DNA of 64,000 nucleotides from Candidatus Omnitrophota bacterium (GCA_037146775.1 JBAWWL010000004.1:86471-150470), one strand, 5' to 3'. Positions 19 to 63,852 are shown, counted from the first letter of the stretch. Made by a program: numbers and translations. The notes: a model not told the origin generated them from the letters alone.

Positions 19-1848
19 TCAATCATTCTCGATAAATTTATTATTCCAGAGGGTTACATTTATCCATTTCCATATTTGCCTGCTTGCGTCTATCTGATTG
101 CGTATGTGCTTCTGATACATTTTAAAACACTGTTTCTGGTCGAAAAATGGGGATTTACGAAAATTATCCGAGTTTAAAATAGTAAGTATGAATTCTTTGA
201 ATCTGGGCTCCCTAAACCATTGCGCACCGGGATTATCGAACCCGATCTTATCTTGCCTATTTCTAATTTTCTCAGGTAAAATTTTTTTCATAGCTTCTCT
301 AAGAATCCATTTATTTTCTCCCTTTCTAATTATGAACGAACTATGGGAACTTAGGGCTTTTTCTACTATTCGATGATCCAAAAAGGGCACCCGCGATTCC
401 AACGAAAACCTCATTGCATTTCTATCTTCCCATTTAAGAAGATGTTCCAATTTGTGTTCGAAATGCTCTATAAGGCTGCTATTTAAACTTTGTGCTTGAT
501 ATAAAATATCCGGTATGGTTAAGTCTTGCCTAAATTGTGATAGAAATTCCAAAGATAGGCTGGTATTTTCTGACACCTTTATTCTCGATTTAATTTTCCC
601 GGACAACAAGAAGTATAAAAATGATTTTAGCCCAAATAATGACTTATGTCTCAAACAATAATAAAAAATTTCACTAAGGAGTGTGTTAAATTTTCTTTTG
701 CACAGTAATTCCTTAAAAAATGTGCCGAAAAAATAATGATACCCCGCAAAGATCTCATCCGCACCTTGTCCGTCCAATAAAACGACTGCGTGGGCTTGCG
801 CCAACTTCATTACCTCGTAATGCACAAAAGGGGCTATGTGCCCGACAGGCTCGTCTATATAGTAGATGAAATCGTGTATGTCGTTTAAAATGTTATCCGC
901 GCCTACATAGGTCTTATATAACCTTTGTCCTAATGCATCCTTAAATTCGTCGATATACTCACTTTCGTCACCGTATTTGTTTTTTCCGTAAACCGCGGAA
1001 AATGTTTGCAAATTATCTTTTTTTAATTCTTTCAGCAGTATGGAAACAATTGTGGAAGAATCTAGGCCGCCACTTAAACATATTCCCAGAGGAACATCGC
1101 TCCTCAAGTGCACATGAACAGAATTAATTAAATCCTCTTTCAATTCTTCGGGGCACGTATAACCTTTTTTTAAATTATCTCTCAGATTGTACCACCTGTT
1201 CATAGAGAAATTATCATCTTTTATTGATATTGTGTGGCCGTGCGGTAACTTTTTAATGCCTTTCAAGAAGGTATCCTCATCATAATCGGTTCGATTGAAA
1301 ACAAGATAGTTATACATTATCTTTTTGTTAATTTCTTTATTTTTTAAAATATGGCTGAAAGGTTTTAGTTCTGAGGAAAAGATAAAAGTATCTTCTGACA
1401 GATAATAATATAAGGGTTTTATACCAAATCTATCTCTGGCCAAAAATAAGTTTTTGTTTTCTATATCAAGTATGGCAAACGCAAACATTCCATTAAATTT
1501 ATCCAAACATCCCGGCCCCCATTCTATAAAAGAGTACAAGACAACTTCCGTATCTGTATTGGAAGAAAAACTATATTTTTGCCTTAGCTCTTTTCGTAAT
1601 TCTAAATAATTATATACCTCACCATTATAAACAATACAAAACCTTCTGTCCGCACTAAACATGGGTTGGTTGCCCTTATCGGTAAGATCTAGAATACTTA
1701 GCCGTAATGCGCCAAGACCCACATGACGGTCAATAAACTGCCCTTGGGCATCCGGGCCACGATGCTGGAGCGACTGAGACGTACGGTATAAGATTTCTTT
1801 ATCTACATCTTTCCCATTAAAATTAAACATTCCGTAAATTCCGCACAT
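19..1848 (-). CDS. asnB: asparagine synthase (glutamine-hydrolysing), AsnB/WbpS-like amidotransferase
   Basis: N-terminal MCGI (Cys2 Ntn nucleophile) and SGGLDSS PP-loop motif; 609 aa; sits inside a glycosyltransferase cluster. Confidence 0.8.
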   Translation of the reverse strand: MCGIYGMFNFNGKDVDKEILYRTSQSLQHRGPDAQGQFIDRHVGLGALRLSILDLTDKGNQPMFSADRRFCIVYNGEVYNYLELRKELRQKYSFSSNTDTEVVLYSFIEWGPGCLDKFNGMFAFAILDIENKNLFLARDRFGIKPLYYYLSEDTFIFSSELKPFSHILKNKEINKKIMYNYLVFNRTDYDEDTFLKGIKKLPHGHTISIKDDNFSMNRWYNLRDNLKKGYTCPEELKEDLINSVHVHLRSDVPLGICLSGGLDSSTIVSILLKELKKDNLQTFSAVYGKNKYGDESEYIDEFKDALGQRLYKTYVGADNILNDIHDFIYYIDEPVGHIAPFVHYEVMKLAQAHAVVLLDGQGADEIFAGYHYFFGTFFKELLCKRKFNTLLSEIFYYCLRHKSLFGLKSFLYFLLSGKIKSRIKVSENTSLSLEFLSQFRQDLTIPDILYQAQSLNSSLIEHFEHKLEHLLKWEDRNAMRFSLESRVPFLDHRIVEKALSSHSSFIIRKGENKWILREAMKKILPEKIRNRQDKIGFDNPGAQWFREPRFKEFILTILNSDNFRKSPFFDQKQCFKMYQKHIRNQIDASRQIWKWINVTLWNNKFIEND

Positions 1849-1857
1849 ATTTTTTAT

Positions 1858-2940
1858 TTATTTAAATTTAAGTTGGTATTGACCGTCTTTCTTCAGGACA
1901 GCAAAGCTTTCTGGATAATTTTCTACAAACCACACCATAAAAGCCGTGGTATCAATATTGTCTTCCATAATCTTTTCTTTTTTACCGCGCCATTTTTCTT
2001 TCAGAAAAGAATCGCTTAATATTTCTATCCCTTTTTGGATGGATTTCTCATATTCGGAAAAAGAGCTGCCAAAATTGAAAATCGTTCCGTACTTTTCTTC
2101 TTGTTCCCTTGTATAATCACGCCCCTTAAAATCCACATAAATTGCCGGGGTTCCTAATAGCGCTGCTTCCGAGGCAGTTTTTGCGCCTTCGGAATAAACT
2201 AGCGCAGCATGATACAGCGCGGCGTGCATTTTCTCGGGTGGGATTGTAATATTGAATTTGTCTAGGCATGACTCCGTCTTCTCTTCCGAAGAAATAAAAA
2301 CTTTGGCATATTTACTGAATTCTTCGACGCATTTGATTTTATATTTTAACGGCATTCCTTTATATCCAAAATCGTGGGTAGCATTTTGCGCGCTAAAACG
2401 TATTATTACAAATTTTTCTGATTCTTTTACTCCTAATTCTGCTAAAACGCTGCTGTCGACGCTGAAATATTTCGGGTGTAGATACGCCAATTCGTGATAC
2501 CCTCGATATGTTATATGTTTTTTACCCAAATTCAGCTTAAGGCTTTCCGGGGATAAAATAATATCCGTAAAGGGTTTATAAAGAAAGATCTGTTCGAGAT
2601 TGCCGGTGTCTTCCATCGATATATGCGGCTTTCGCATTAATTTTGAAACAAAAGCAAAAGCGATGGATCCATGGCTTAAAAATAAATCCGGGTGAAATCT
2701 CACTGAGAACTTTAGTGTTTTAAAAACGAATCTAAACAAACATGCGATTTTTCTCAAAAATCCAACACCGAATTTTCCTAATACGATATACTTACATCCG
2801 TATTTTTCTAATAAGTACGCTGAGCATCCTTTATCTCGCACGGTAAAGAAAACTTCATGCCCTTTTTTCTCTAAAGCCCAGGCAATATTCTTAAAAAGAT
2901 GCACGTGGGCAGGATGACCAATATCAATTAAAATTTTCAT
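1858..2940 (-). CDS. DUF354 family protein (GT-B / UDP-GlcNAc 2-epimerase-like fold)
   Basis: N-terminal MKILIDIGHPAHVHLFKNI...GHEV..TVRDKG pattern typical of DUF354. Confidence 0.55.
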   Translation of the reverse strand: MKILIDIGHPAHVHLFKNIAWALEKKGHEVFFTVRDKGCSAYLLEKYGCKYIVLGKFGVGFLRKIACLFRFVFKTLKFSVRFHPDLFLSHGSIAFAFVSKLMRKPHISMEDTGNLEQIFLYKPFTDIILSPESLKLNLGKKHITYRGYHELAYLHPKYFSVDSSVLAELGVKESEKFVIIRFSAQNATHDFGYKGMPLKYKIKCVEEFSKYAKVFISSEEKTESCLDKFNITIPPEKMHAALYHAALVYSEGAKTASEAALLGTPAIYVDFKGRDYTREQEEKYGTIFNFGSSFSEYEKSIQKGIEILSDSFLKEKWRGKKEKIMEDNIDTTAFMVWFVENYPESFAVLKKDGQYQLKFK

Positions 2941-2945
2941 CTACC

Positions 2946-3764
2946 TTAATATGTTGGGCTCATTGTGGCGATAGGCGTGAGGCCGGCGTATACCGGATAA
3001 CCCTCGCGTATTAATAACCTGGCTTCCGTGGGCAAAATGATATCAACCTGCGATCCAAAAACTATTTTTCCTATTTTATCGCTTCGCCGAACTAGCTGCT
3101 TTTCTTCTACACAAGTCTTTATTCTACGCACCATGCGCGAAGCTATCTGGATAACCCCTATGAGACGATTGCCGTTCTTTATGACAATGATGTTTCTTTC
3201 GTTTTGACTGCAGGAATCCGGCAACTTGAGTGACATAAATTTTCCCGCACAATGTTTTATGAGCACTATTTCTCCTTCTGTCGGTGCCCTATTTACATGC
3301 ACATCCAATATCGACATACTAATTCCAATAAGCCAGCAATCAGTATCTAATATGCTTGTCGCTGCGATTTCATCCAAACGGATATTGGCTTTTCCTTTTA
3401 TGGAGGTTGGGATAATGCCTTTTTCCACTTTCCGTATATATATTACTCTGCCATCTGCCGGAGAAACTATAATATTTTTATCGCCATGAAATTGCCTTTC
3501 AGGATCTCTGTAAAATCTCAGCAAAATAACACCGATTATGCTTATAAACAGGGCAAAAATGTTCAGGAAGAAAATCACGGTTGGATTACTGCCATGCATA
3601 ACTATCGCGATATCAATAATAGAGCTTACAAACACGGCAATGATGGCTTCCCGGTAAAAACAACTTTTTGGTAATTTTAATTTATTATACAGAAATAAGA
3701 AAATGAGAAATATGAACAAAACATTCGGAAAAACCAATAACCAATAGCTCACTGTCTCCTCCAT
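2946..3764 (-). CDS. phosphatidylserine decarboxylase family proenzyme (Asd-type, pyruvoyl-dependent) with N-terminal transmembrane segment
   Basis: FYRDPER, SPADG, DVHVNRAP motifs and FGSQV near the C-terminus (LGST-like self-cleavage site); hydrophobic N-terminal 80 aa. Confidence 0.6.
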   Translation of the reverse strand: MEETVSYWLLVFPNVLFIFLIFLFLYNKLKLPKSCFYREAIIAVFVSSIIDIAIVMHGSNPTVIFFLNIFALFISIIGVILLRFYRDPERQFHGDKNIIVSPADGRVIYIRKVEKGIIPTSIKGKANIRLDEIAATSILDTDCWLIGISMSILDVHVNRAPTEGEIVLIKHCAGKFMSLKLPDSCSQNERNIIVIKNGNRLIGVIQIASRMVRRIKTCVEEKQLVRRSDKIGKIVFGSQVDIILPTEARLLIREGYPVYAGLTPIATMSPTY

Positions 3765-6681: not shown

Positions 6682-8528
6682 CTACGCTCTTGGTGGAATA
6701 AGGCCATCCATAATCTTAAAGAAAAAATAGAAAAAAATCTAAAGTCTCCTTTAAGATTAATATTGTTTTCAAAACCTTTTATTAGTTTATCTGTAAAAAT
6801 TTCGTCGCCGTTGCCTATCTTGGATACATACTTTGTGACCATATCCTTGGACCATAACTCGGATCTAAAGGTATCGTTTCCTTTCAATCTGCGCCTTGCC
6901 CGCTCTTTTAAATACACTGGCCCAATCTTAAGCGCCTTCGCAATAAAAGGCAAAAGAAGCTCTTTAGGTTTATACCCTCTATCTGTAACTATGTCCCCCA
7001 GGACCGGATTAGCCATTTGAATAATTTTGGCATAAAATAATTGACTGTTTATGCGCGAAAAAATATCCGTTTCCCCTGCCCCTTTATACATTCCCAGAAA
7101 TGGCGTTTTGAAAATAAGTTCTAAAAATTCTTCGTCGAGATAAGGAGTTAATGTCTCGACGTAATGGCTTTCAATCCTTATTTCTTGCATAAAATACTTT
7201 CTTGTTGCTTCCTCTAAAAGGAAAATATAAAATCGAGCAAGCTTGTCGAATGATTCCGTCTTTTTGATATAGTGCTTTTCAAAGTCTTCCTTAATTGCGT
7301 GCGAATATTTATCAATAATATCTGCTCTTATATATCCCGTGTTTTTTAGTTGCCTTAAAATATCATTGAATTCCGCATCGAAGTTTTCAGACATAAAAAG
7401 TCTTATTGTTTCTGGGCTAATTTGTTCGGTAGAACGGGAAAAAGGTTTTAAAATTTCGCTGCCGAACAACCCTGTTATATTCACCCTGGAAAAATTACTT
7501 AATTGCGCAAATACATAGGGGAAGTTTGCCCGCAAAATAGGGGCAGTTCCGTCCGAAAAGTCTAATACTTTTAATGCGTAGTCTTCATAATTTTTTTCGA
7601 ATGCTTCACCTAAATGAATTGCCTTATAGTTTAGTCCCAATTTTTTGGAAATAAGTAAGGGTATCTCTATTTGCTTGCTGCCGGGCATACCATATGAGTA
7701 GCATAAAAAATCTTTTGGGTCTCTCTCAAGAAGTGCTAAATTTGTTCTAGAATCAAATCCGGCTGTTAATGAAAGCAGAAATTTATCCGCGTCTGACGTA
7801 TACACTCTTAAATTTTTCTTCATCAAATCACTGCACGCACATAACGCATCTTTTTCCGGAATAAGCTGATCTGCGCACAGCAAGTTTTCTGTGTGCCAAT
7901 ATTTTTGTACTTTTAATCCATTTTTATCAATTTTTAAAATTGACGCGTGGGATAGTTGTAAAATATCATTATAATATGTTTTATCAAACAACGGATAGTA
8001 GAATAGCGTGTGCTCTATCAGGGCTTTTTCGTTTAGTTTTGGTTGAATATCAAGAAATTTAAGTATCAGTTTCATCGAAGAAGAAAATATAAAATTATTG
8101 TCTTTATAATAATAAAATAAAGGCAAAGTATTTAGTTTACTGCTGACAAGAACAAGCTCTTTTATATAGTTATCATAAATGATAACGGTAAAATTTCCTT
8201 TTATGTAATGCGTCATACCCACATTACATTCTTTATACAACACAAACACATCGTTCATTGATAATTTTCTGGGGTTAACCGAGGTGAACTCATTGTGTTT
8301 CTTGCTAGAAAAGGCTGACCCAAATAAAAAAATAGAGAGATTGTCTTGGGACAAATAACAGCTCTCTGCCCGGGGCGCTGGGGCATAACTGATTTCTCCT
8401 TCGGAAAAAGTCGTTGTTGATATATTATTTTCTGGTATATCGGCACGGATACATTTTCTCGAAAAATTTTTTTCTCGATCGAACTTATTTTGTCTAAGAT
8501 TAATTATTCCTATAATGTCTGTTATCAT
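6678..8528 (-). CDS. asparagine synthetase-like protein lacking the N-terminal Cys nucleophile
   Basis: AsnB-like fold throughout (degenerate SGG.DS as TAGFDSR), but the N-terminus is MITDIIG rather than MCG. Confidence 0.55.
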   Translation of the reverse strand: MITDIIGIINLRQNKFDREKNFSRKCIRADIPENNISTTTFSEGEISYAPAPRAESCYLSQDNLSIFLFGSAFSSKKHNEFTSVNPRKLSMNDVFVLYKECNVGMTHYIKGNFTVIIYDNYIKELVLVSSKLNTLPLFYYYKDNNFIFSSSMKLILKFLDIQPKLNEKALIEHTLFYYPLFDKTYYNDILQLSHASILKIDKNGLKVQKYWHTENLLCADQLIPEKDALCACSDLMKKNLRVYTSDADKFLLSLTAGFDSRTNLALLERDPKDFLCYSYGMPGSKQIEIPLLISKKLGLNYKAIHLGEAFEKNYEDYALKVLDFSDGTAPILRANFPYVFAQLSNFSRVNITGLFGSEILKPFSRSTEQISPETIRLFMSENFDAEFNDILRQLKNTGYIRADIIDKYSHAIKEDFEKHYIKKTESFDKLARFYIFLLEEATRKYFMQEIRIESHYVETLTPYLDEEFLELIFKTPFLGMYKGAGETDIFSRINSQLFYAKIIQMANPVLGDIVTDRGYKPKELLLPFIAKALKIGPVYLKERARRRLKGNDTFRSELWSKDMVTKYVSKIGNGDEIFTDKLIKGFENNINLKGDFRFFSIFSLRLWMALFHQERR

Positions 8529-8531
8529 TTT

Positions 8532-9788
8532 TTATAATTTACTTTTCCGTTGTGTCCTTGTTAATAACTTGCTTATTCTGCCAAATTTTCTTATCAAGAA
8601 GGAGCTTGTGTCTTTGCACCACGATAAAAAAGTATATAGCGGGTCCTCTAACATAAATACATCGAATACCTTTTTATAATTCGGATTGGAAATATAAAAA
8701 TATGGAAAAATAAACTCTTTTAGTGTAATCCTTTTTTTGGCTATGGCGCCAATCCCGCCCGATATATCTCCCGGTACCCTGAAACACTCAAAATATATAC
8801 ATTTTTTAGTTGTTACGCTTGTTGGTAAATTCAATAAATCCGCATAATAACCATAACCTATATCAAATCCGCTCCTAAAAAGCAGGTTGGAAAAACCGGG
8901 AAGTCTGGGGTTAAAATCAGTAAGAAAATAATCTTGTTCCTTTTTTGAAAAAATCCAGTCAAGATGCACAAAACCTTTCCAATGTAAATTATTCAACAAT
9001 TTTTTTGTCAATTCTTCAAGGCGGCGGTTACCGATAACTTTGCCGACATAAAGCCTGCTGCCAAAAGTACCGTCACTATTAAAACAGGTTCTTATTTTTT
9101 GTATGCATAAAACCCCTGCGCACTCGCCTCTCTTGTTATATAGACTCTCCGAACACCAAATATCTCGTATCCCACACTCTATAACCTCTTGGGTCATCAG
9201 CGAAGATTTCCTATATTTGTTTTGTGGCGAAGAAATTATATTTTCCATTTCTTTATAATTGCTTTCTAGATTATTTTTGTTTTCTACCTTCCTGTATATC
9301 CCTCCGGCAAGTCGCGTAGCTTTAATTATGCAGTTCTCCGAAAGTGCTTTCCAGCCTTTTTCGGTGTTTTCAATGGTATCAGCGAGAAAAGATTGCGGGG
9401 TATTTATCCCTATACTTTTACAATATGTATAACATTGCCATTTATCAAAAACTTTTTCAAAAGTATCAAGCTCCGCGATGTTCAAGGAATAGCCGCCATG
9501 TATCAATTCAGCTTGTGATTCCGAAATCAGTTCTGCACTAATGTCTCCCGAATAAATTAATACTCCCCGATAAGGTAAGTCCAGTAAAAATTTAATATAT
9601 TCTTTTCCTTTTTCAACCGACGGAGAAATCACGCTTTTGCTTACGAAACGAGATTTAAAAGCAGTGCTGTTAGAAACGGAACTAAGCGCGATGATTGGGA
9701 TTCTACGAATGCCGAAAGAAGCCAAAAGGCCTTCCTGGGAACGTAGTTCGGAATCGGCTAAAATAACCGGTATTGCTTCTTTTGTCAT
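8532..9788 (-). CDS. ATP-grasp domain protein
   Basis: DFNPRLPGF (E/D-x-N-P-R) ATP-grasp signature near the C-terminus. Confidence 0.5.
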   Translation of the reverse strand: MTKEAIPVILADSELRSQEGLLASFGIRRIPIIALSSVSNSTAFKSRFVSKSVISPSVEKGKEYIKFLLDLPYRGVLIYSGDISAELISESQAELIHGGYSLNIAELDTFEKVFDKWQCYTYCKSIGINTPQSFLADTIENTEKGWKALSENCIIKATRLAGGIYRKVENKNNLESNYKEMENIISSPQNKYRKSSLMTQEVIECGIRDIWCSESLYNKRGECAGVLCIQKIRTCFNSDGTFGSRLYVGKVIGNRRLEELTKKLLNNLHWKGFVHLDWIFSKKEQDYFLTDFNPRLPGFSNLLFRSGFDIGYGYYADLLNLPTSVTTKKCIYFECFRVPGDISGGIGAIAKKRITLKEFIFPYFYISNPNYKKVFDVFMLEDPLYTFLSWCKDTSSFLIRKFGRISKLLTRTQRKSKL

Positions 9789-9916
9789 ATGGTGACCATA
9801 TTTTGTGTTTATCTGGTTCTTTTCTTTGTCTATCCCTGACTAGGCCGACATAACGCTTCGTACGTAATCTGCGCAACAGGACTATTTATATAACACATGC
9901 CCCTCTTTAGCGTCAG

Positions 9917-10927
9917 CTATCCGGTAATCTTTGTTTCGATAAATTTAATATAATCGCTCATGGTAGTAACATATAATTCCTTGCGGTTCATAGATATGAA
10001 AGAAAATAAACCAGAAAGCACTTCTTTTAAAAATAACCCGTCTGAAGACGGATGAAACCAAAAATGACATAACCGTCGATGTTTAATGGCCCTCTCTACA
10101 ATAGTTGTGTATTTTTTTATGTAATAATCTGCCTTCCATCCATGGCATGATAGTCCTATTTCTGCTGTAGTAGGGCACTGCCAAAGCCCATACGAATCTC
10201 GACGAGGAAAAGCTAAAACGTCTTTATCTATACGGTAAGACGTAATTCCTTCTTCCTTGAGGACGCTGCGATGACCTATAAAATTACCGGGAAAAACAAA
10301 AGATTTCAATTCGACCCCGAAAGAATGCGCGGATTCTTTGCACTTCTTAACCTCTTTGCGCAGCATTTCTGCGGAACAAACCTTTTCTCGACAATCAATA
10401 TGCGAAAAAGTATGACAAGCTATCTCATGTTTAACGCTCGAGCGAATGATTTTCTCGACTAAATCCGGCGCATACCAAGCCGTGGCATCCTGCCAATTGC
10501 AACAAGGATCTTGATCGAACCACTCTCCGGAAAGAAATTTCCAATATTGGTTTTTGAAATGTTTAGGGCTGATCAAATCCGTATGCACCCGGCCGTCTTT
10601 TCTTGAGCAGCTTTCAAGGAAAAGGTGCCCGACCGTTGCCCAGGTCATTGGCACATTAAACTTTTCGCATAATAGCAAAATCCAATCAACATTCTCCCGC
10701 TCTCTTTTGGCAATGGCCTCTGCTTCCTTGATATTACAATGCAGGAATTGTGCGAATCGCCATGCCCAGGTAAGTTCAAAATCGCAAGAGAAAAGAACAA
10801 CCGCCTTATAAGGTTGGGGGATACTTTTGGAGATGGTGCGGTGTGGGTAATAAACAACCTGGGGTTTATTGCCTAGCGCAAAATTAAGCCGGCTCAACGC
10901 CGCTTTTGTCCTTAATAGATATTTCAT
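9917..10927 (-). CDS. putative polysaccharide deacetylase-like hydrolase
   Basis: Weak CE4-like pattern (CDFE, H-x3-H); assignment is tentative. Confidence 0.35.
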   Translation of the reverse strand: MKYLLRTKAALSRLNFALGNKPQVVYYPHRTISKSIPQPYKAVVLFSCDFELTWAWRFAQFLHCNIKEAEAIAKRERENVDWILLLCEKFNVPMTWATVGHLFLESCSRKDGRVHTDLISPKHFKNQYWKFLSGEWFDQDPCCNWQDATAWYAPDLVEKIIRSSVKHEIACHTFSHIDCREKVCSAEMLRKEVKKCKESAHSFGVELKSFVFPGNFIGHRSVLKEEGITSYRIDKDVLAFPRRDSYGLWQCPTTAEIGLSCHGWKADYYIKKYTTIVERAIKHRRLCHFWFHPSSDGLFLKEVLSGLFSFISMNRKELYVTTMSDYIKFIETKITG

Positions 10928-28641: not shown

Positions 28642-28644
28642 AAT

Positions 28645-28766
28645 ATCAGATGTCAGAGGCCGGAGGTCAGAGATCAGATAGCAATTGTATATGGGATTTG
28701 CTTATTGTCAACATTTTATCTCTTTTATTGTCTAACCTCTGTCTTCTGACGTCTGATTTCTGATTT
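28645..28766. repeat. imperfect 15-bp inverted repeats (ATCAGATGTCAGAGG / CTTCTGACGTCTGAT) flanking an 80-bp AT-rich core
   Basis: Read directly from the sequence; 13/15 complementary. Confidence 0.4.
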
Positions 28767-28770
28767 TAAA

Positions 28771-28791
28771 TGGTGGTCGATACAGGACTTG
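28771..28791. repeat. direct repeat of the 3' terminal 21 nt of tRNA-Val (20/21 identical), 117 bp downstream of the tRNA
   Basis: TGGTGGTCGATACAGGACTTG versus TGGTGGGCGATACAGGACTTG at 28908. Confidence 0.7.
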
Positions 28792-28907
28792 TATGCAATC
28801 TCCGACGTAGTCGGAGCGCCGAAGGCAATTATTGCGTCCAAGTCAACATGTTTTGTAAAAGCAGCTGCTTGTCTTGCTATCACAGATTTTCAAAGAAGCA
28901 AAAATAT

Positions 28908-32341: not shown

Positions 32342-33169
32342 CTAACCTAACCGCTTTGTGATCCTTTCCAGATCTTCCAAACTATAATATTCGATGGCGA
32401 TTTTTCCGCGGTTATTTCGCTTATGAAAAACTCGCACCTTTGTCCCCAAAGATTTTTGCAATGTATCCTCTACTTCCAGCACAAACGGGTCAACGCTTTT
32501 CCGCTTCTTGGAAGCCCTTTGTACCCGTGTCTCTATTTCTCGTACCGAAAGTCCCTCGCTAAGAATGTCCCTGAATAATTTTCTCTGCGCCTCTTCGGTC
32601 TCCATGCCCAGGATTGTCCGGGCTTGACTGCGCGTTATAATCCTCTTACGCACCGCTTCCTTGATTTCCGGCAGCAACCTTTGTAAGCGAAGCGTATTAG
32701 CAATAGTAGTTTTATCCTTGCCGACTACCTGCGCAACATCTTCAAGCGTAAATTCAAACTGTTCGATAAGTTGCTGAAATGATTCTGCTTCGTCGATCGG
32801 GTTTAAATCCTGGCGTTGCAGATTTTCTACGATCGCATAAATCAGTGCGTTTTTGTCATCGAGCTCTTTAATAATTGTTGGTATCTCATTGAGCCCCAAT
32901 GACTTAGCAGCGTGATATCTCCTGCCACCGGCCACTATTTCGTAACTCTCCTCCCCTGTTTTCCTCACGATAATCGGTTGGATTATACCTTTCTCTTTTA
33001 TCGAACGAGCTAATTCCTCCAATTCTTTCGTGTTCATCTCTTTCCGAGGTTGATACCGGCCGGGACTAATTTTATACATGGGTAAGTGAACGTAATCTTT
33101 TGCTGTCTCGAGCATATTTTTTTTCGGGATAAGGGCGTCGAGTCCTTTTCCTAAAACTTTTTTTTCCAT
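32342..33169 (-). CDS. parB: chromosome partitioning protein ParB/Spo0J
   Basis: ParB N-terminal box (GERRYRAA-like: GGRRYHAAK) and HTH; adjacent to parA. Confidence 0.85.
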   Translation of the reverse strand: MEKKVLGKGLDALIPKKNMLETAKDYVHLPMYKISPGRYQPRKEMNTKELEELARSIKEKGIIQPIIVRKTGEESYEIVAGGRRYHAAKSLGLNEIPTIIKELDDKNALIYAIVENLQRQDLNPIDEAESFQQLIEQFEFTLEDVAQVVGKDKTTIANTLRLQRLLPEIKEAVRKRIITRSQARTILGMETEEAQRKLFRDILSEGLSVREIETRVQRASKKRKSVDPFVLEVEDTLQKSLGTKVRVFHKRNNRGKIAIEYYSLEDLERITKRLG

Positions 33170-33963
33170 TACTGGCTTACCTCCTTAACCGCGACTTCAA
33201 TCGCTATTTTTTCTTTTAAAATTTCTTCGGTTAAATTTAGATAGGCTTTTGCCCCCACGCATATCGGATCATAAAAATGTATGGGCTTACCAAAACTGGG
33301 TGCTTCGGCAAGTCTGATGTTGCGCGGGATAATGGTATTAAATGTTTTTTCTTTAAAAAAATTCCTTACCTCTTCGATGACCTGTAACGTAAGCCGTGTC
33401 CTAAAATCCGCCATAGTCAACAAAACGCCCCTGATCTCCAAGCCAGGATTTAACCGTTCTCGAACAAGATCGGTGGTATGTAATAGTTTTGAAACTCCTT
33501 CCAAAGCATAATATTCACATTGTATGGGCACAATAACCCCATCAACAGCCACCAGCACATTAACGGTCAAAAGCCCCAGGGATGGCGGGGCGTCAATAAT
33601 AATATAGGCAAATTTGTCTTTTATTTTATAGAGCTCCTCTCTTAAGCGCATTTCTCTATTTTCGATAGCAACAAGCTCAATCTCTCCTCCGGTAAGCGCA
33701 ATACACGAAGGAAGAATGTATAGTCCGGACCATTGGGTAGGATAAATACTTTCTTCTATGGCCGCTGTTCCAGAAATAATATCATAGATTGATTGTTTGT
33801 TTTCGCTTGCAACCCCTAAGCCTGATGTAGCGTTACCTTGGGGATCCATATCAACAAGCAGTGTTTTTTGACCAGCAAGAGCTAAATATGATGCTAAATT
33901 GATGGCGCTGGTAGTTTTACCAGTACCGCCCTTTTGATTACAAATACCGATTATTTTTCCCAT
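33169..33963 (-). CDS. parA: chromosome partitioning ATPase ParA/Soj
   Basis: Deviant Walker A KGGTGKTT. Confidence 0.85.
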   Translation of the reverse strand: MGKIIGICNQKGGTGKTTSAINLASYLALAGQKTLLVDMDPQGNATSGLGVASENKQSIYDIISGTAAIEESIYPTQWSGLYILPSCIALTGGEIELVAIENREMRLREELYKIKDKFAYIIIDAPPSLGLLTVNVLVAVDGVIVPIQCEYYALEGVSKLLHTTDLVRERLNPGLEIRGVLLTMADFRTRLTLQVIEEVRNFFKEKTFNTIIPRNIRLAEAPSFGKPIHFYDPICVGAKAYLNLTEEILKEKIAIEVAVKEVSQ

Positions 33964-33976
33964 TATGGTTTGACGG

Positions 33977-34000
33977 TACCGTTTCCACGTGGAAACGGTA
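33977..34000. promoter_or_regulatory. parS-like perfect 24-bp palindrome TACCGTTTCCACGTGGAAACGGTA, 14 bp upstream of the parA start codon
   Basis: Core TTCCACGTGGAA is identical to the parS core; perfect dyad symmetry. Confidence 0.55.
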
Positions 34001-34150: not shown

Positions 34151-34166
34151 GTTTCCACGTGGAAAC
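34151..34166. promoter_or_regulatory. parS-like 16-bp palindrome GTTTCCACGTGGAAAC (copy 2)
   Basis: Exact repeat of the copy-1 core. Confidence 0.5.
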
Positions 34167-34631: not shown

Positions 34632-34649
34632 CGTTTCCACGTGGAAACG
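34632..34649. promoter_or_regulatory. parS-like 18-bp palindrome CGTTTCCACGTGGAAACG (copy 3)
   Basis: Exact repeat of the core. Confidence 0.5.
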
Positions 34650-34765: not shown

Positions 34766-36202
34766 CTATGTTTTACACGTTTTCACGTGGAAACCTGTTT
34801 TGGCTACACGCATTTGGTAGGAAAGGGTGAGGATGTTTTGAACAAACCAATATATAGTAAGACAGGAGGGGAAAGTATAAAAAACTACTCCCATAACTAT
34901 AGACATGACCAATCCGATATTTTTTTGATCCGACGAAAGAGAAGAGGACGAACTAATTTTTTGTTGCACTATTCCTACAATTACGATTAAGATGGGTAAG
35001 ATGTTGATATAATCTACTGGCTGCGGGAAGGGGAGTTTAAATGCGTGATCCGGCAATGATAAATCTTTAATCCAAAGAAATGGCTGGCCTTTCAACTCTA
35101 CAAATTTTAGCAGTACTTGCCAAAGCGCGATAAACACCGGGAATTGTAGCAACATAGGTATACAGGACCCTGCGGGATTGACTTTGTTTTTTTTATACAA
35201 TTCAAGTGTTTCTTTATTAACTTTTTGCGGGTTATCCGGATACTTTTTTCTCAATTCTTCGATTTCCGGCTGAAGTTCTTGCATTTTTTTCATTGCCTTG
35301 GTGCTCATCATAGTGAAGGGGAACAAACAGCAATAAGTGAATAGAGAGAGAAGAATGATACTAATACCCCAGCTTTTCGTAAAAGAGAAAAAGAATTCTA
35401 ATAAACCTACCAAAATCAAGCCAATACCATGAAAAAACCCGTAATTAATAATGCTGTGCAAACCGAGTTTTTTGAGTTCTTTTTCTGAAAGCGGCCCTAT
35501 ATATAGAGATATTTCTTCTGGGACTGAAACCAATTCCAAAGAAAGCGTGTTTTTGGTTGGCAAAATATTCGCCATATACGAGCCCTTCAGCAGAGAAAGG
35601 CAGAAATGTTTTGCGCTTATCCCCACGAAAGCTACATTACTTACTATGGTGTTCTTGGCTTGCTTGAGAGATACTTTTTTGATGGTTTCGTTTTGTGTAT
35701 AGAAAACCTCTAAAAATTGTTGTTCTAAGTTTTTGTCGCTCAAGCTGTTAGAAAATATATTTATCCGCTGAGGAAGGGGAGAGGAGAGTTTTATTTTAAC
35801 TAAAAAGTCGCTAAAAATAAACTCTTTACGATTGCCTTGCGCTGAAATAAAGACAATTCTATCGTCTTGTACTTGACTTTTAAATTCTTTATCTTTATCT
35901 TGAGAGATAAAGCCGATGTTTCTAAAAGGGAGCTCTTCGTTGTATGATTTGATGGAAAGTTTTTTAATGTAACCTCCTCGCGGAGAATATGTTACAATAA
36001 ATTTACCGATGCTGGCTTGGGGGAGTTCACTATTGTCGTCTACCTCTGTTGCTGTTTCGACGGTTGGGGTTTCTACCGCAGCCGGCGCTGTTATTTGGGT
36101 GGCTGGCGGCAAAGTACGGGGGGCATATTTGGAAAGAAAATAGTTATAGCCGATAAAAAATAACAAAGTAAGAAAAATAGCCGGAAATAATCTTTTTTCC
36201 AT
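34766..36202 (-). CDS. yidC: membrane protein insertase YidC
   Basis: N-terminal TM, large periplasmic domain, conserved C-terminal five-TM core (PMLLQFPVFIALW...); synteny with yidD and rpmH. Confidence 0.85.
   Translation of the reverse strand: MEKRLFPAIFLTLLFFIGYNYFLSKYAPRTLPPATQITAPAAVETPTVETATEVDDNSELPQASIGKFIVTYSPRGGYIKKLSIKSYNEELPFRNIGFISQDKDKEFKSQVQDDRIVFISAQGNRKEFIFSDFLVKIKLSSPLPQRINIFSNSLSDKNLEQQFLEVFYTQNETIKKVSLKQAKNTIVSNVAFVGISAKHFCLSLLKGSYMANILPTKNTLSLELVSVPEEISLYIGPLSEKELKKLGLHSIINYGFFHGIGLILVGLLEFFFSFTKSWGISIILLSLFTYCCLFPFTMMSTKAMKKMQELQPEIEELRKKYPDNPQKVNKETLELYKKNKVNPAGSCIPMLLQFPVFIALWQVLLKFVELKGQPFLWIKDLSLPDHAFKLPFPQPVDYINILPILIVIVGIVQQKISSSSSLSSDQKNIGLVMSIVMGVVFYTFPSCLTIYWFVQNILTLSYQMRVAKTGFHVKTCKT
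34789..34804. promoter_or_regulatory. parS-like palindrome GTTTTCACGTGGAAAC (copy 4, one mismatch) at the extreme 3' end of yidC
   Basis: 15/16 match to the core. Confidence 0.45.
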
Positions 36203-39369: not shown

Positions 39370-42014
<2,645 letters not shown>

Positions 42015-42015
42015 G

Positions 42016-42200
42016 TGGTAAACCCTAAACCCGAAATCCTAAACTCTAAACAAACTCAAACTCAAAAACCCCATATCCAAAACGTTTTTGGTTTTAGGTT
42101 TATAATTTTGGATTTGTTTAGGATTTAGTCCTTCGACTTCGCTTGAGGACTAATGGTGAGCGCAGTTGAAACACTAGAGCTTAGTATTTAGAGTTTGGAA
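42016..42200. repeat. structured intergenic repeat element, copy A
   Basis: GGTAAACCCTAAACCCGAAATCCTAAACTCTAAACAAACT (7-bp periodic C/A-rich arm) plus complementary G/T-rich arm ...GTTTAGGATTTAG...TTTAGAGTTT; fills the gyrB-stop to gyrA-start spacer. Confidence 0.6.
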
Positions 42201-42204
42201 AAAC

Positions 42205-44673
42205 ATGCAAGAACAAACAAATAAAGGAAAAATTATAACCCGCTATCTCGAAGAAGAGATGAAGGATTCCTACCTCTCTTACTCGATGAGCGTTATTGCA
42301 GGCCGTGCCCTTCCGGATATCCGTGACGGGCTTAAGCCGGTACAACGCAGGATTATGTATGCGATGCATGATTTGCATCTTCGGCATAACCAGTCGCATA
42401 AAAAATGTGCGAGGATAGTCGGAGAATGTCTTGGTAAATATCATCCGCACGGAGACCTTTCGGTTTACGATGCTCTCGTGAGGATGGCCCAGGATTTTTC
42501 TTTGAGGTACCCGCTCGTAAACGGGCAGGGTAACTTTGGCTCGATAGACGGCGATCCTCCCGCAGCAATGCGTTATTCCGAAGCGCGGCTTTCCAGGATC
42601 GCAGACTACATACTCCAAGATATCGAAAAAGAAACAGTCAAGTTTTTCCCTAATTTCGACAATTCACTCACTGAACCGGAAGTGCTTCCGTCGGTTGTCC
42701 CCAATCTTTTGATAAACGGTGCAAGCGGCATCGCCGTTGGCATGGCAACCAATATGCCGCCTCATAATTTAGGGGAAGTGTGCGATGCGCTGGAGCATTT
42801 GCTAGACAACCCCACCGCCTCAATCAAAGAGCTGCATAAATTTGTAAAAGGGCCGGATTTCCCAACCGGTGCGATAATCTGCGGCAAAGCAGACATACTT
42901 AAAATGTATGAAGAAGGTAAGGGAAGATTAATCCTTCGCGCAAAATCGACCATTGAACACGAAAAGGGAAAATCCCAAATAATTTTTAACGAAATACCTT
43001 ACCAATTAAACAAGACCAATCTCATCGAGGCAATAGCAGGTCTTGTTACTGACAAAAAAATAGAGGGCATCTCCGATTTACGTGACGAATCGAACAAGGA
43101 AGGTATACGCATAGTCTTGGAGCTTAAAAGAGATGTCGAGCCGCAAATTATTCTAAACCAGCTTTATAAACACACAAATCTTGAAACAACTTTTGGCGCG
43201 ATATTTCTTGCGCTTGTAAACAGGAAGCCCGTCATCCTTACGCTTCGCGAAATGCTGACTCATCACATTAGCTTCCGTAAGGAAGTAATCGTAAAGAGGT
43301 CGAAATTTGAGTTAGATAAAGCGCAAAAAAGAGCACATATTTTAGAAGGTTTAAAGGTTGCCTTGAAACATTTGGATGAGGTAGTTTCGATCATTAAAAA
43401 ATCAAAAAATCCTCAAGAGGCAAAAGAAGGCTTGATGAAAAAATTCTCCCTGTCGGATTTACAGGCGCAGGCAATTCTGGAAATGCAGCTGGTGAGGTTG
43501 TGTACGTTGGAGAGAAATAAGATCGATGAAGAATATTTGGAACTAATTAAGAAAATCGAGCTATATAACCTTATTCTATCTTCAGAAAAAAAACAGGAAG
43601 AATTGATAAAGCAGGAACTCAAGGACTTGAGAGAACAATTCGCCGATAGCAGGCGCACAGAAATTGTTGCGCAGAAAGAAGAGATAGAGATAGAAGATTT
43701 GATCGTGGAAGAAGATATGGTAATAACCATATCTGGGTCGGGGTACATTAAGCGGTTGCCGCTCACCAGTTACCGACAGCAAAAGCGCGGCGGCCGCGGC
43801 GTTACCGCCATGGCAACTTCGGACGAGGATTTCGTAGAACATCTTTTTGTTGCTTCCAGCAAGGACACCCTTTTGATATTTTCCGACGAAGGGAAGATCT
43901 ACCCGGTAAAAACATACGAAGTCCCGGTTGGCAGCCGCACCTCTAAAGGAAGAGCCATTATCAATCTTTTAAATTTAACCACCAAAGAAAAAATTACCAC
44001 GGTTTTATCCATAAAGGATTTCGATCCCAAGCAGTGTATCGTGATGACTACGCAAAAAGGTATGATCAAGAGAAGTTCTCTCGAACTTTTTTCGAACATG
44101 CGTAAAAGCGGCATCTGCGCGATTACGCTTGATAGAGACGACCGTCTTGTCGGGGCAAGGCTCTGTGAAGATAAAGACGAAGTAGTTCTTGCGACTAAAA
44201 AAGGGATTGCGATACGATTTAAGATGGCCCAGGTGCGTCCTACCGGACGGCAATCCCAGGGTGTGAGAGGAATGAAGCTGGCGAAGGACGACATAGTGTT
44301 GGGTATGGTGCTTGTTCGGGGAAGTATTAAGAAGGAAGAGTTGTATCTTTTTACCGCGACCGAGAACGGTTTTGCCAAACAAACACATATTGAGCAATAC
44401 CGGCTTCAATCCAGAGGCGGCAAAGGGATTATCAATATAAAAATTTCGCCAAAAATCGGAGAGGTCAAGGGTTTTACTTGCGTACGTCAAGACGAGGAAC
44501 TCGTCTGTATTACGCAAAAGGGCATACTTATTCGCACCAAAGTGAAAGATATCCGCGTCTCGGGTCGTTCTACCCAGGGGGTGCGGATTATTAACGTAGA
44601 AAAAGGTGACAAAGTTTCGTCCATCGCCCGGATTATTCCCGAAGAAGAAGCGCCGGTGAGTCAAACTTTATAA
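42205..44673 (+). CDS. gyrA: DNA gyrase subunit A
   Basis: Active-site region, QRR, six C-terminal beta-pinwheel repeats; 822 aa. Confidence 0.95.
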
Positions 44674-47411: not shown

Positions 47412-47553
47412 ATTAGATGGTAAACCCTAAACCCGAAATCCTAAACCCTAAACAAACTAGAAATTACAAATCTAAAATTCCAAATATTTGTTTCGAGTTT
47501 GTTATTTATGGTTTATTTGTTTAGGATTTAGTGTTTAGAATTTAGAGTTTAAA
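47412..47553. repeat. structured intergenic repeat element, copy B (41-bp 5' arm 40/41 identical to copy A)
   Basis: GGTAAACCCTAAACCCGAAATCCTAAACCCTAAACAAACT ... GTTTAGGATTTAGTGTTTAGAATTTAGAGTTTAAA; fills the glmS-stop to rsmI-start spacer. Confidence 0.6.
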
Positions 47554-61638: not shown

Positions 61639-63507
61639 ATGTTATTTACTTTTTCCGAGCCTGAGATAAAAGAAATATTAGCTGCCCAGCACGATCAACC
61701 TTACGTTTTTTTAGAATCCGCAACCCCTCGTCCCGGCGAACACACCTCGTTTTTATTCAACCATTTCAGTGAAATAATTACTTTTCGTTGGGGTGATGAC
61801 ATTAATGCATTTTTTAGAACCATAGAAGACCGCATACAAAATAATTTTTGGCTATGCGGCTATTTTACTTATGAATTTGGCTATTTTCTGGAACCGGCAC
61901 TATATCATTTGCGAGAAAAAAGTAACACAGTGTTAGCATGGCTTGGTGTAAGCAAGGAACCTTTTCGTTTCGACCATCACAACCACAAGCCGTCTTTGGG
62001 CCGCGCCCCTCTTTTTTATCGGGTAACGCATCTAACGTCCACTATCGACAAAGAAACCTATCGCGATCATATCGCTATCATAAAAAGTTACCTAGAAACA
62101 GGCTTAACATATCAGGTTAATTATACGTTTAAAATGAAGTTCGATTTTACAGGTGATCCGATAGATTTATATCTGGCTTTACGCCGTGGGCAACCCACTT
62201 CCTATTTGGCATGCATTAATACCGGCAGCGAAAATATTCTTTCCTTTTCCCCGGAGCTGTTTTTCCGTCTCTCTGGGGACACCATTGTCACTAAGCCGAT
62301 GAAAGGAACGCATGCCAGAGGTCTCGCTAAAGACGACGATGAATATTGCCGCCGCCAACTGAAACGGGACAAGAAAAGCCGAGCGGAAAACATCATGATA
62401 GTTGATTTATTACGCAACGATTTAGGTAAAATCGCTTATCAAGTGAACGTGCCGGTTCTCTTTGAAACAGAACAACATCGAACATTGCATCAGATGACCT
62501 CAACTGTTCGGGCGACCCTCCCGCGCCAGACGTCAGCCGCGGATATTGTCAAAGCGCTTTTTCCTTCCGGTTCGGTAACGGGAGCACCGAAAATAAAAAC
62601 TATGCAGCTTATAAAAGATTTAGAAGCCCAACCGCGTAATATTTATACCGGAGCAATCGGTTATATTTCTCCACAACATGAGATGTGTTTTAATGTTGCC
62701 ATTCGTACGATTTCTATTTCCGGCCACAAAGGAGAAATGGGTATTGGCGGAGGGATTGTATATGATTCAACTGCTGAAAATGAATATGAAGAAGCCTTGC
62801 TTAAATCAAAGTTTCTCACGCAAGAATTTCCTCAATTTTCGCTTATTGAGAGTTTATTATGGCAGAACAATAAAGGGTATTTTTTATTGGAAGAGCATCT
62901 TAGGCGGCTGAAAAATTCCTGCAGCTATTTTTCTATTCCGGTCAATATGTATAAAATACGCCGGGAACTAAAAATGTTGGAGAAAAAAATAAAAGGCGAA
63001 AAAACCAAGATCAGAATAATACTATCTACCGGCGGCGAACTTGCGATAGAGAGCCAACCCTTGGAAGGCATGACCGAATCAGTAACAATAAAGGTTAGTC
63101 CGCACAGGGTAAATCCTCAAGATATTTTTCTTTATCATAAAACTACCCGGCGTAAATTATACGATGAAGCCTTGAAGGGGGCGCGCATGGAAGGATTCTT
63201 CGAAGTTATGTTCTTAAACGTTCACGGCCAAGTTACTGAGGGAAGCGTGAGCAATATTTTTATTGAGAAAGGCAAACTATTATACACACCGCCCACAAAA
63301 TGTGGACTTTTAGGCGGAGTTTTAAGACAACATCTTCTAGATAAAGGTGTGGCCAGGGAGAGAGTGCTTTATATAAAAGATATTTTATCGGCAGATACGT
63401 TATATATAGGTAATTCTGTGCGCGGCTTAATCAAGGCAGAAATTTCCCTTGCTGATTTTGAAAATAAAAGTACAATTGAAATACAGGTGGAAAACTGCAA
63501 GAGGTAA
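61639..63507 (+). CDS. pabBC: aminodeoxychorismate synthase component I fused to an aminodeoxychorismate lyase-like (class IV aminotransferase) domain
   Basis: Chorismate-binding domain (PIKGT, GAPK, IYTGAIGY motifs) up to about aa 390, then a class IV aminotransferase fold to aa 622. Confidence 0.7.
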   Translation: MLFTFSEPEIKEILAAQHDQPYVFLESATPRPGEHTSFLFNHFSEIITFRWGDDINAFFRTIEDRIQNNFWLCGYFTYEFGYFLEPALYHLREKSNTVLAWLGVSKEPFRFDHHNHKPSLGRAPLFYRVTHLTSTIDKETYRDHIAIIKSYLETGLTYQVNYTFKMKFDFTGDPIDLYLALRRGQPTSYLACINTGSENILSFSPELFFRLSGDTIVTKPMKGTHARGLAKDDDEYCRRQLKRDKKSRAENIMIVDLLRNDLGKIAYQVNVPVLFETEQHRTLHQMTSTVRATLPRQTSAADIVKALFPSGSVTGAPKIKTMQLIKDLEAQPRNIYTGAIGYISPQHEMCFNVAIRTISISGHKGEMGIGGGIVYDSTAENEYEEALLKSKFLTQEFPQFSLIESLLWQNNKGYFLLEEHLRRLKNSCSYFSIPVNMYKIRRELKMLEKKIKGEKTKIRIILSTGGELAIESQPLEGMTESVTIKVSPHRVNPQDIFLYHKTTRRKLYDEALKGARMEGFFEVMFLNVHGQVTEGSVSNIFIEKGKLLYTPPTKCGLLGGVLRQHLLDKGVARERVLYIKDILSADTLYIGNSVRGLIKAEISLADFENKSTIEIQVENCKR

Positions 63508-63540
63508 TATATCCCTTATTCGCACGAATAAGGGATATAT
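63507..63540. promoter_or_regulatory. 34-bp palindrome ATATATCCCTTATTCGCACGAATAAGGGATATAT (16-2-16) immediately upstream of arsR, overlapping the pabBC stop
   Basis: Perfect inverted repeat, read directly. Confidence 0.6.
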
Positions 63541-63818: not shown

Positions 63819-63852
63819 ATATATCCCATATTCGCACGAATAAGGGATATAT
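63819..63852. promoter_or_regulatory. second copy of the 34-bp palindrome (one mismatch) immediately downstream of arsR
   Basis: ATATATCCCATATTCGCACGAATAAGGGATATAT. Confidence 0.6.

Follow-up and report, generated by a model that had tools for sequence, protein, structure and literature searches.

The 190-nt spacer between gyrB and gyrA in the stretch of Omnitrophota DNA analysed here (64,000 nt at full length, hereafter the window) holds a foldback element that is, on balance, probably one copy of a dispersed, slippage-prone repeat, spread by copy and paste and tolerated in co-transcribed spacers. Two inverted arrays, each with about five heptamers, and a self-complementary centre make up the element. 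Paired arrays of this class abound in this Omnitrophota clade; across the class, the architecture is constant and the heptamer sequence differs by family. On this reading, the gyrB-gyrA copy is an ordinary lineage-specific insertion rather than a conserved gyrase control element, and its interest lies in the class: about one spacer per 10 kb in the clade, orthologous spacers included, has a hairpin of the same design and of different sequence. Reports of such pairs in Xanthomonas and Geobacter go back more than ten years, without an explanation having emerged.

We identified gyrA from its protein matches, the best of which are Omnitrophica/Omnitrophota MAG proteins with no more than 85% identity, so that the window comes from this phylum; the identities of gyrB, glmS and rsmI come from synteny and from Pfam matches in relatives, where the gene order, with Pfam support, is dnaA-dnaN-dciA-gyrB-gyrA. 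The initial annotation of the window listed five 7-bp units directly after the gyrB stop codon, and all five are present exactly as given, at 42020-42054, in the element that we call copy A (Table 1). TRF reported a period of 7 and 4.7 copies at 42019-42051 and again at 47421-47453, with 80-84% matches (80% in copy A). The A3N4 rhythm continues to an apex at 42083/42084, after which a T3N4 rhythm forms its imperfect complement, and an inverted-repeat finder placed two arms there (42032-42083 and 42084-42135) that are 71% complementary with zero gap, in agreement with the earlier description of a G/T-rich arm as an imperfect complement of the first. The further statement that the whole spacer can fold into one long hairpin holds only in part: a foldback is present, but it is interrupted by a nested 56-nt module (42129-42184), and the MFE structure of the + strand leaves the first three heptamers unpaired. 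Nor does the hairpin end at the gyrA ATG, as had been thought, since the predicted fold stops about 6-10 nt short of it. Folded as RNA with its flanks, copy A gave z-scores of -1.78 (+ strand) and -3.55 (- strand); it is weaker than the second copy described below. The nested module splits the stem, and several C:A mismatches of the + strand become G:U pairs on the other.

No second match to the 56-nt module was found in any fetched sequence, and the related element of another genome (L003, below) has another hairpin module, which is GC-rich, at the corresponding place in its 3' arm. A sigma-70-like match (TTGAAA-17-TAGAGT, 42166-42194, 9/12) lies inside the nested module, and such matches were not above the count in shuffled sequences. 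The remark that gyrA has no SD also stands, but there is nothing special in it: an SD is absent in about 55% of the window's genes, and the gyrA of one relative (L006) likewise has none, although no heptamer element is found there.

Table 1. Positions of the three foldback elements and of the genes next to copies A and B in the window.
Feature	Position	Sequence or description	Remarks
gyrB	39651-42014	787-aa ORF	stop codon 42012-42014
Copy A, 5' arm	42017-42054	GGT (with which the spacer opens) + AAACCCT AAACCCG AAATCCT AAACTCT AAACAAA	starts 2 nt past the gyrB stop codon
Copy A, inner hairpin and first part of 3' arm	42055-42128	ends with GTTTAGGATTTAG	apex 42083/42084; located by inverted repeat and folds
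Copy A, nested 56-nt module in 3' arm	42129-42184	own small hairpin AGTCCT...AGGACT	missing from copy B
Copy A, terminal part of 3' arm	42185-42198	TATTTAGAGTTTGG	stops 6 nt short of the gyrA ATG; matches ATTTAGAGTTT, with which copy B closes
gyrA	42205-44673	822-aa ORF	ATG at 42205
glmS stop codon	47409-47411		
glmS-rsmI spacer	47412-47553	142 nt	
Copy B, 5' arm	47419-47456	GGT + AAACCCT AAACCCG AAATCCT AAACCCT AAACAAA	
Copy B, centre	47457-47515	self-complementary; A3N4 and then T3N4 periodicity carries on	
Copy B, 3' arm	47516-47553	TTTGTTTAGGATTTAGTGTTTAGAATTTAGAGTTTAAA	abuts the rsmI ATG (47554); two inverted repeats found
Third foldback	28643-28772	five xxTCAGA units, loop, five TCTGAxx units	directly 5' of tRNA-Asp (minus strand); unrelated heptamer family

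The same element had been said to recur after glmS, and we found a second full-length copy there, copy B (47419-47553). The 23-mer GGTAAACCCTAAACCCGAAATCC occurs twice in the window (at 42017 and 47419), against none expected from shuffled sequences. The alignment of the two copies spans their full length, with identity at 38/40 positions in the 5' arm, at 37/50 in the centre and at about 90% in the 3' arm; copy A differs in having one heptamer fewer and in carrying the nested module. The early suggestion of a REP- or MITE-like candidate is to this extent upheld, in that the spacer contains a repeated, hairpin-forming intergenic element whose two copies are homologous end to end. The predicted fold of copy B covers nt 2-141 of its spacer, with RNA z-scores of -4.70 (+) and -7.49 (-) and with none of 200 shuffles equally stable; folded as DNA, its hairpin has a z-score of about -5. 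The initial annotation had staked its reading on further copies in the genome or a stable predicted structure, and both were found, the stability lying above chance in copy B and, less strongly, in copy A with its flanks. The third foldback, with RNA z-scores of -5.25 and -4.35, has a heptamer that fits the MTYCTGA consensus of Geobacter metallireducens discussed below, as do elements of the Omnitrophota locus L133. In a scan for 7-nt self-similarity, the window yielded exactly these three elements and 20 shuffles yielded none; within the 64-kb window, the family of copies A and B numbers two copies only.

A Logan contig from an independent assembly (L005, SRR12676968) that encodes an RsmI identical to that of the window, and that equals the window exactly across the compared stretch, starts inside the 5' arm of copy B (47430). 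This start fits an assembly break at the repeat, although it is a weak hint. In practical terms, such repeats break short-read assemblies.

Copies A and B are built of degenerate A3-Y3-N heptamers (AAAYYYN, hereafter A3Y3N), and a 21-mer search matched four species-representative genomes. Omnitrophica UBA6210 (L003, 55% GC) holds the same element, with a 36-nt run, comprising the same five units in the same order, identical to the 5' arm of copy A and with a similar 3' end, and two metagenome loci (L039 and L121) hold further related copies that differ from those of the window by whole-heptamer indels. Two other hairpins open with the same three units as the window copies: one in Terrybacteria (L001), which lies directly 5' of a tRNA-Asp gene, as does the third foldback of the window (28643-28772), and one in a MAG labelled gammaproteobacterial (L004). 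Because three-unit A3Y3N strings have only 32^3 possibilities, these two matches may reflect convergence within an A3Y3N superfamily rather than transfer, and we do not take the cross-phylum matches as proof of horizontal transfer. The same argument would not account for the five-unit identity within Omnitrophota. The elements of L003, L004 and L039 lie in reverse orientation relative to their flanking genes. We saw a single element match per locus and no pair of ends flanking a gene; no direct repeats were shared by the flanks of copies A and B, L003, L039 and L121, whose ends can be fixed only with an empty site, and no filled and empty site pair at nucleotide resolution was found among the loci compared. 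A search of viral contigs with two patterns gave no match that would point to carriage by phages. Small GC-rich palindromes adjoin or are nested in several of these foldbacks (L004, about 530-560 and about 2020-2045; L003, 7735-7790; L001, 1306-1320); L004 has GATTCCCGCCTCCGCGGGAATGAC twice, and L003 a perfect 16-bp stem closed by a TTCG loop. Their position points to a second small element with a preference for heptamer-foldback sites.

The CCCTAAA unit equals the plant-type telomere repeat, and the likeness is coincidental, as was suspected from the start. When metagenomes were scanned with a 20-mer, most of the at least 120 matches were long one-stranded (CCCTAAA)n-like arrays of the eukaryotic chromosome-end type, whereas the bacterial copies, short and in inverted pairs, sit between genes that are conserved; as bacterial foldbacks we could recognise only L039 and L121, and perhaps L111 and L127. 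Copies A and B have at most two exact CCCTAAA units, followed by their complement, between essential genes of conserved order, so they are not telomeric repeats, and eukaryotic or telomeric contamination is ruled out by the syntenic essential neighbours and by recurrence in independent Omnitrophota assemblies. A contig labelled Cyclobacteriaceae (L002) has at about 1380-3330 a kilobase-scale one-stranded array of C/A-rich degenerate heptamers (CCCTAAA, TCCAAAA and similar); it does not resemble the short inverted pairs, and contamination or a different phenomenon could be behind it.

The gyrB-gyrA spacer of the closest relatives is only 8 nt long (L006/L007, GyrA 85% identical to that of the window), and in L010 (75%) it is 14 nt long. 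Because these spacers have 8-14 nt, the element is dispensable for gyrA in the closest relatives, and the idea of a structure specific to gyrA regulation finds no support. At four further loci (L008, L009, L133 and L134; GyrA 77-83%), the same spacer contains hairpins with four to five heptamers per arm, made of the unrelated units GCTGACA, CGGTTTT, CTGACAA and CACCAGN, and the glmS-rsmI spacers likewise contain different heptamers (GTTTACA in L008, GTCCACA in L009, GCGCATA in L132 and an A3N4 type in L133). The relatives' spacers thus share a common design of 4-7 heptamers, a loop and 4-7 complementary heptamers, with unrelated sequences. Some families recur at separate loci, namely GTTTACA (twice in L008, and in L131), GCGCATA (L132, L134) and CAGCTGA (L008, L009, L133). 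We counted about 24 foldbacks in 249 kb of Omnitrophota DNA, nearly all of the arrays having an inverted partner; in 175 kb, nine arrays were found at period 7, and none at periods 4-6 and 8-12 or in shuffled sequences. Their density is very uneven: about seven were found in 22 kb of L133, but the 16 kb of L006 contain none and the 22 kb of L010 one weak candidate at most. All foldbacks with mapped neighbours lie between co-oriented genes, starting no more than about 10 nt past the stop codon (one at 22 nt) and mostly ending no more than 12 nt before the start codon (one at 20 nt). Of 16 elements tested, 14 had a z-score below -3 on at least one strand. Their units combine a conserved core of 4-5 nt with 2-3 variable positions, and the positions conserved along an arm are those paired across the arms (Spearman 0.49). 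The architecture is independent of both sequence and orientation.

The gyrB-gyrA junction is also an insertion hot spot in this clade, and additional short ORFs that lack Pfam hits are found there in some relatives; L131 and L132 (GyrA 84%) each have one, and the junctions of L131, L132 and L134 lie at 7795-8319, 8317-9160 and 9788-10000. In L132 and L134, a conserved insert of about 125 nt with a hairpin (AACTTCGCTTTGGCGAAGCC...) stands behind a duplicated gyrA-start-like ATG(C/T)C(A/C)GAACAG; a 9-nt likeness between this leader insert and the 56-nt module of copy A is probably due to chance. Inteins are found in gyrA and/or gyrB of L132-L134. In L009 (7552-9903), gyrB is split into two ORFs of 250 aa and 502 aa that lie 90 nt apart, for which a frameshift, a pseudogene and an assembly error are all conceivable explanations.

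How might these elements have come to occupy the spacers? The end-to-end homology of copies A and B indicates that whole elements have in all likelihood been copied between loci, and the distribution of the copies suggests that they are mobile. Whole elements would have been written into new intergenic sites by a copy-and-paste process, either by non-autonomous transposition in the manner of MITEs and REPINs or by recombination. Their arrays would then gain and lose 7-nt units through replication slippage, as the literature on heptameric repeats suggests; the whole-heptamer indels that separate copies A and B, and those seen across the window, L039 and L121, fit such slippage. The relatives compared reach at most 85% identity in GyrA. 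As the mapped elements show, they persist only in spacers between co-oriented genes, which they fill from stop codon to start codon. There, the foldback would keep the upstream stop and the downstream start adjacent in the mRNA, so that expression of the downstream gene might be little disturbed. RNase III cleavage or coupling of stop and start, if it occurs, would be a by-product of the foldback. The initial annotation had named an RNase III processing site and a translational-coupling structure as candidates; both are possible, but nothing in our analysis favours either.

By published descriptions of repeats, the elements are tandem arrays of 7-nt units in non-coding DNA, between co-oriented ORFs and near ORF ends, and they form convergent pairs on opposite strands that are able to fold into a stem-loop. 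Arms of 71-85% complementarity, a length of 135-190 bp and two copies in 64 kb, together with L003, L039 and L121, place the A3Y3N elements within the range of MITEs in size, terminal inverted repeats and copy number. Their arms are not of the REP type, being tandem heptamers without internal dyad symmetry or a GTAG/CGTC tag. No terminator-like site overlaps copy A or B, whose stems are long, A/U-rich and without a following T-run, so they are not intrinsic terminators. Integron attC sites were dropped as a comparison for the heptamer foldbacks on account of a misfit to the R'/R'' consensus and of flanking genes that are core genes in conserved order. A HutP-like (UAG-N4)n motif fits the G/U arm of the A3Y3N family alone, and was dropped as a general explanation. 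Searched with Rfam 15 at the gathering threshold, the window gave only tRNAs, and a permissive search of the gyrB-gyrA spacer gave as its best hits generic miRNA-precursor hairpins of at most 26 bits against thresholds of 70-330; the Rfam check that had been proposed for this spacer therefore returned no curated RNA family.

Could the foldback instead be a functional cis-acting RNA hairpin of the gyrBA and glmS-rsmI transcripts? It might serve as double-stranded RNA cut by RNase III, as a stabiliser that sets the ratio of the products, or as a coupling device whose 3' arm masks the start region as long as no ribosome, ending translation at the upstream stop, has melted the stem base. Foldback repeats such as NEMIS/Correia of Neisseria are RNase III substrates. 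The placement of every mapped element between co-oriented genes, close to both stop and start, would be expected of such a device, as would the stem base of copy B, which reaches almost from one end of its spacer to the other; filling from stop to start and co-transcribed positions thus fit an RNA-level role as well. Orthologous spacers retain a hairpin despite their differing sequences, and the presence of different families in the same spacers of different lineages could equally mean that a hairpin is needed while its sequence turns over. Nevertheless, the closest relatives have no hairpin between gyrB and gyrA, the A3Y3N family occurs in both orientations relative to transcription, and the same architecture stands upstream of tRNA genes, where translation is irrelevant. 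The arms of copies A and B show no compensatory change, and no Rfam family matches. Across 16 elements, the difference between sense and antisense MFE was of mixed sign, and in all three elements of the window the antisense strand folds better by about 8 kcal/mol, because C:A mismatches of the sense strand turn into G:U pairs on the other; a function of the sense-strand RNA is not favoured by these values. We regard an RNA function as unlikely, and annotation of such repeats as gene-specific regulators as unwarranted.

A site acting at the DNA level, whether it binds a nucleoid or architectural protein or acts on supercoiling, replication or local genome stability by way of an extruded cruciform or a G-quadruplex, would have an orientation-independent function and so would match the missing strand bias. 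A core with variable positions, the conserved ones being those that pair, is what iterated binding sites would show, the hairpin of copy B is stable as DNA, and regulator binding (IHF/HU) and G-quadruplex (G4) formation were proposed by the authors of the Geobacter and Xanthomonas studies cited below. Many unrelated families in one clade would however require as many cognate proteins, and the elements avoid divergent promoter regions. A G-quadruplex is no common denominator of the paired arrays, because G-tracts are missing from most Omnitrophota families (GTTTACA, TCAGAGG, CAGCTGA, GCGCATA). As for copies A and B, the G/T-rich 3' arm of the + strand has no GGG, and the GGG tracts of the - strand (two in copy A, three in copy B) are interrupted by a GG, short of the four runs of at least three Gs that mark the Xanthomonas and Nostoc repeats. 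We therefore judge a DNA-level site to be decidedly unlikely. Purely local microsatellite growth, in which slippage in place and a partner made by template switching would produce each element with neither copying between loci nor function, would explain why copies differ by whole heptamers. In many prokaryotes, moreover, no long simple repeats are more over-represented than heptanucleotides, an excess that has been put down to slippage (Mrazek 2007, cited in both PMC4679880 and PMC4692102). Independent slippage cannot, however, explain how two loci, and other genomes as well, came to have the same order of five different units, a centre with 74% identity and a 3' arm that matches, and local growth is for this reason very improbable.

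Inverted heptamer pairs in operon-internal spacers are not novel, contrary to what the initial annotation had supposed, having been described before in Xanthomonas (PMC4692102) and in Geobacter metallireducens (PMC2700814). Xanthomonas genomes each have 70-75 convergent pairs of GGGAATC arrays that are potential stem-loops (Rehm et al. 2015, PMC4692102). These arrays lie between aligned ORFs, mostly within 50 bp of ORF ends, are transcribed and have about four to five units, four being preferred; they occupy the same spacers in related species with varying length and sequence, have no known function, and consist of a repeat that forms a G-quadruplex in vitro, whence the authors' proposal, and Nostoc has related GGGGA(C/T)T arrays (PMC4692102). 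The Xanthomonas and Nostoc arrays resemble the Omnitrophota elements in their 7-nt units, intergenic position between aligned ORFs, convergent pairing and shared spacers with variable sequence. The Xanthomonas units, however, are near-perfect and G-rich, whereas those of Omnitrophota are degenerate and A/T-rich with few G-tracts; moreover, the Omnitrophota copies keep the order of variant units, their hairpin runs through the centre, and several unrelated families coexist. In Geobacter metallireducens, 'class 3 predicted global regulator binding sites' contain five tandem MTYCTGA units (Aklujkar et al. 2009, PMC2700814), occur in opposite-strand pairs at variable distance and form a multicopy family located by BLAST; one example lies between proB and proA, and binding of the IHF/HU type was guessed by the authors without a test (PMC2700814). 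Five heptamers per site, inverted pairs and a copy in an operon spacer are shared with the elements reported here, of which copies A and B differ in using the AAAYYYN heptamer.

REPINs are REP doublets that form hairpins, the REPs being tagged palindromes tied to RAYT transposases (Bertels and Rainey 2011, PMC3116915). With these and with MITEs (Correia/NEMIS, ERIC), our elements have in common that they are extragenic foldbacks of 100-200 bp with conserved ends and a less conserved, pairing centre, that several families occur per genome and that one element may be nested in another; their arms, unlike those of REPINs, are heptamer arrays and not GTAG/CGTC-tagged palindromes. TAACTGA heptamers of marine Beggiatoaceae, cyanobacteria and Bacteroidetes stand a few nucleotides upstream of SD-less starts (MacGregor 2015, PMC4679880), and their sets are almost always direct and in one orientation (one inverted case in 170 sets) and predicted to be unstructured (PMC4679880). 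Like the tandem heptanucleotide (STRR) sequences of cyanobacteria, they resemble the Omnitrophota arrays in lying near SD-less starts, in their patchy spread across phyla and in having two to six units, but they are direct repeats, whereas the inverted pair is the rule in Omnitrophota.

Families that resemble one another occur in phyla that are far apart: Omnitrophota, CPR and a gammaproteobacterial MAG have A3Y3N, Omnitrophota and Geobacter share CTTCTGA, and TAACTGA is found in the three groups just named. We speculate, although we think it quite unlikely, that heptamer foldbacks are a distinct and widespread class of prokaryotic elements written or moved by new machinery, for example by a single-strand-specific transposase of the HUH type or by an oligomeric protein whose subunits each recognise one core. 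If true, such machinery would explain the shared architecture of unrelated families, the repeated occupancy of spacers and the similar families in distant phyla. The process or protein that generates the elements could well be sought in a lineage such as this one, which is compact, uncultivated and rich in families.

Several other features of the window deserve mention. Between the third foldback and tRNA-Val lies a 130-nt stretch (28776-28906, minus strand) in which neither ARAGORN nor Rfam made a call; the T-arm/acceptor half of the tRNA-Val next to it recurs in its 3' end, CAAGTCCTGTATCGAC. The stretch may be what is left of a tRNA, or an unusual tRNA that escaped detection. The 16-bp palindrome GTTTCCACGTGGAAAC occurs four times (33981-33996, 34151-34166, 34633-34648 and 34779-34794; none expected by chance) in or at the edge of an 802-nt spacer that adjoins a parA-like ORF (33169-33963) near dnaA. 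It resembles the parS consensus, and the four sites are a candidate parS cluster. Finally, a perfect 16-bp inverted repeat (ATATATCCCTTATTCG / CGAATAAGGGATATAT) is found at 63507-63540 and again at 63819-63852, directly after two consecutive ORFs; this small dispersed palindrome is possibly a terminator or a REP-like element.
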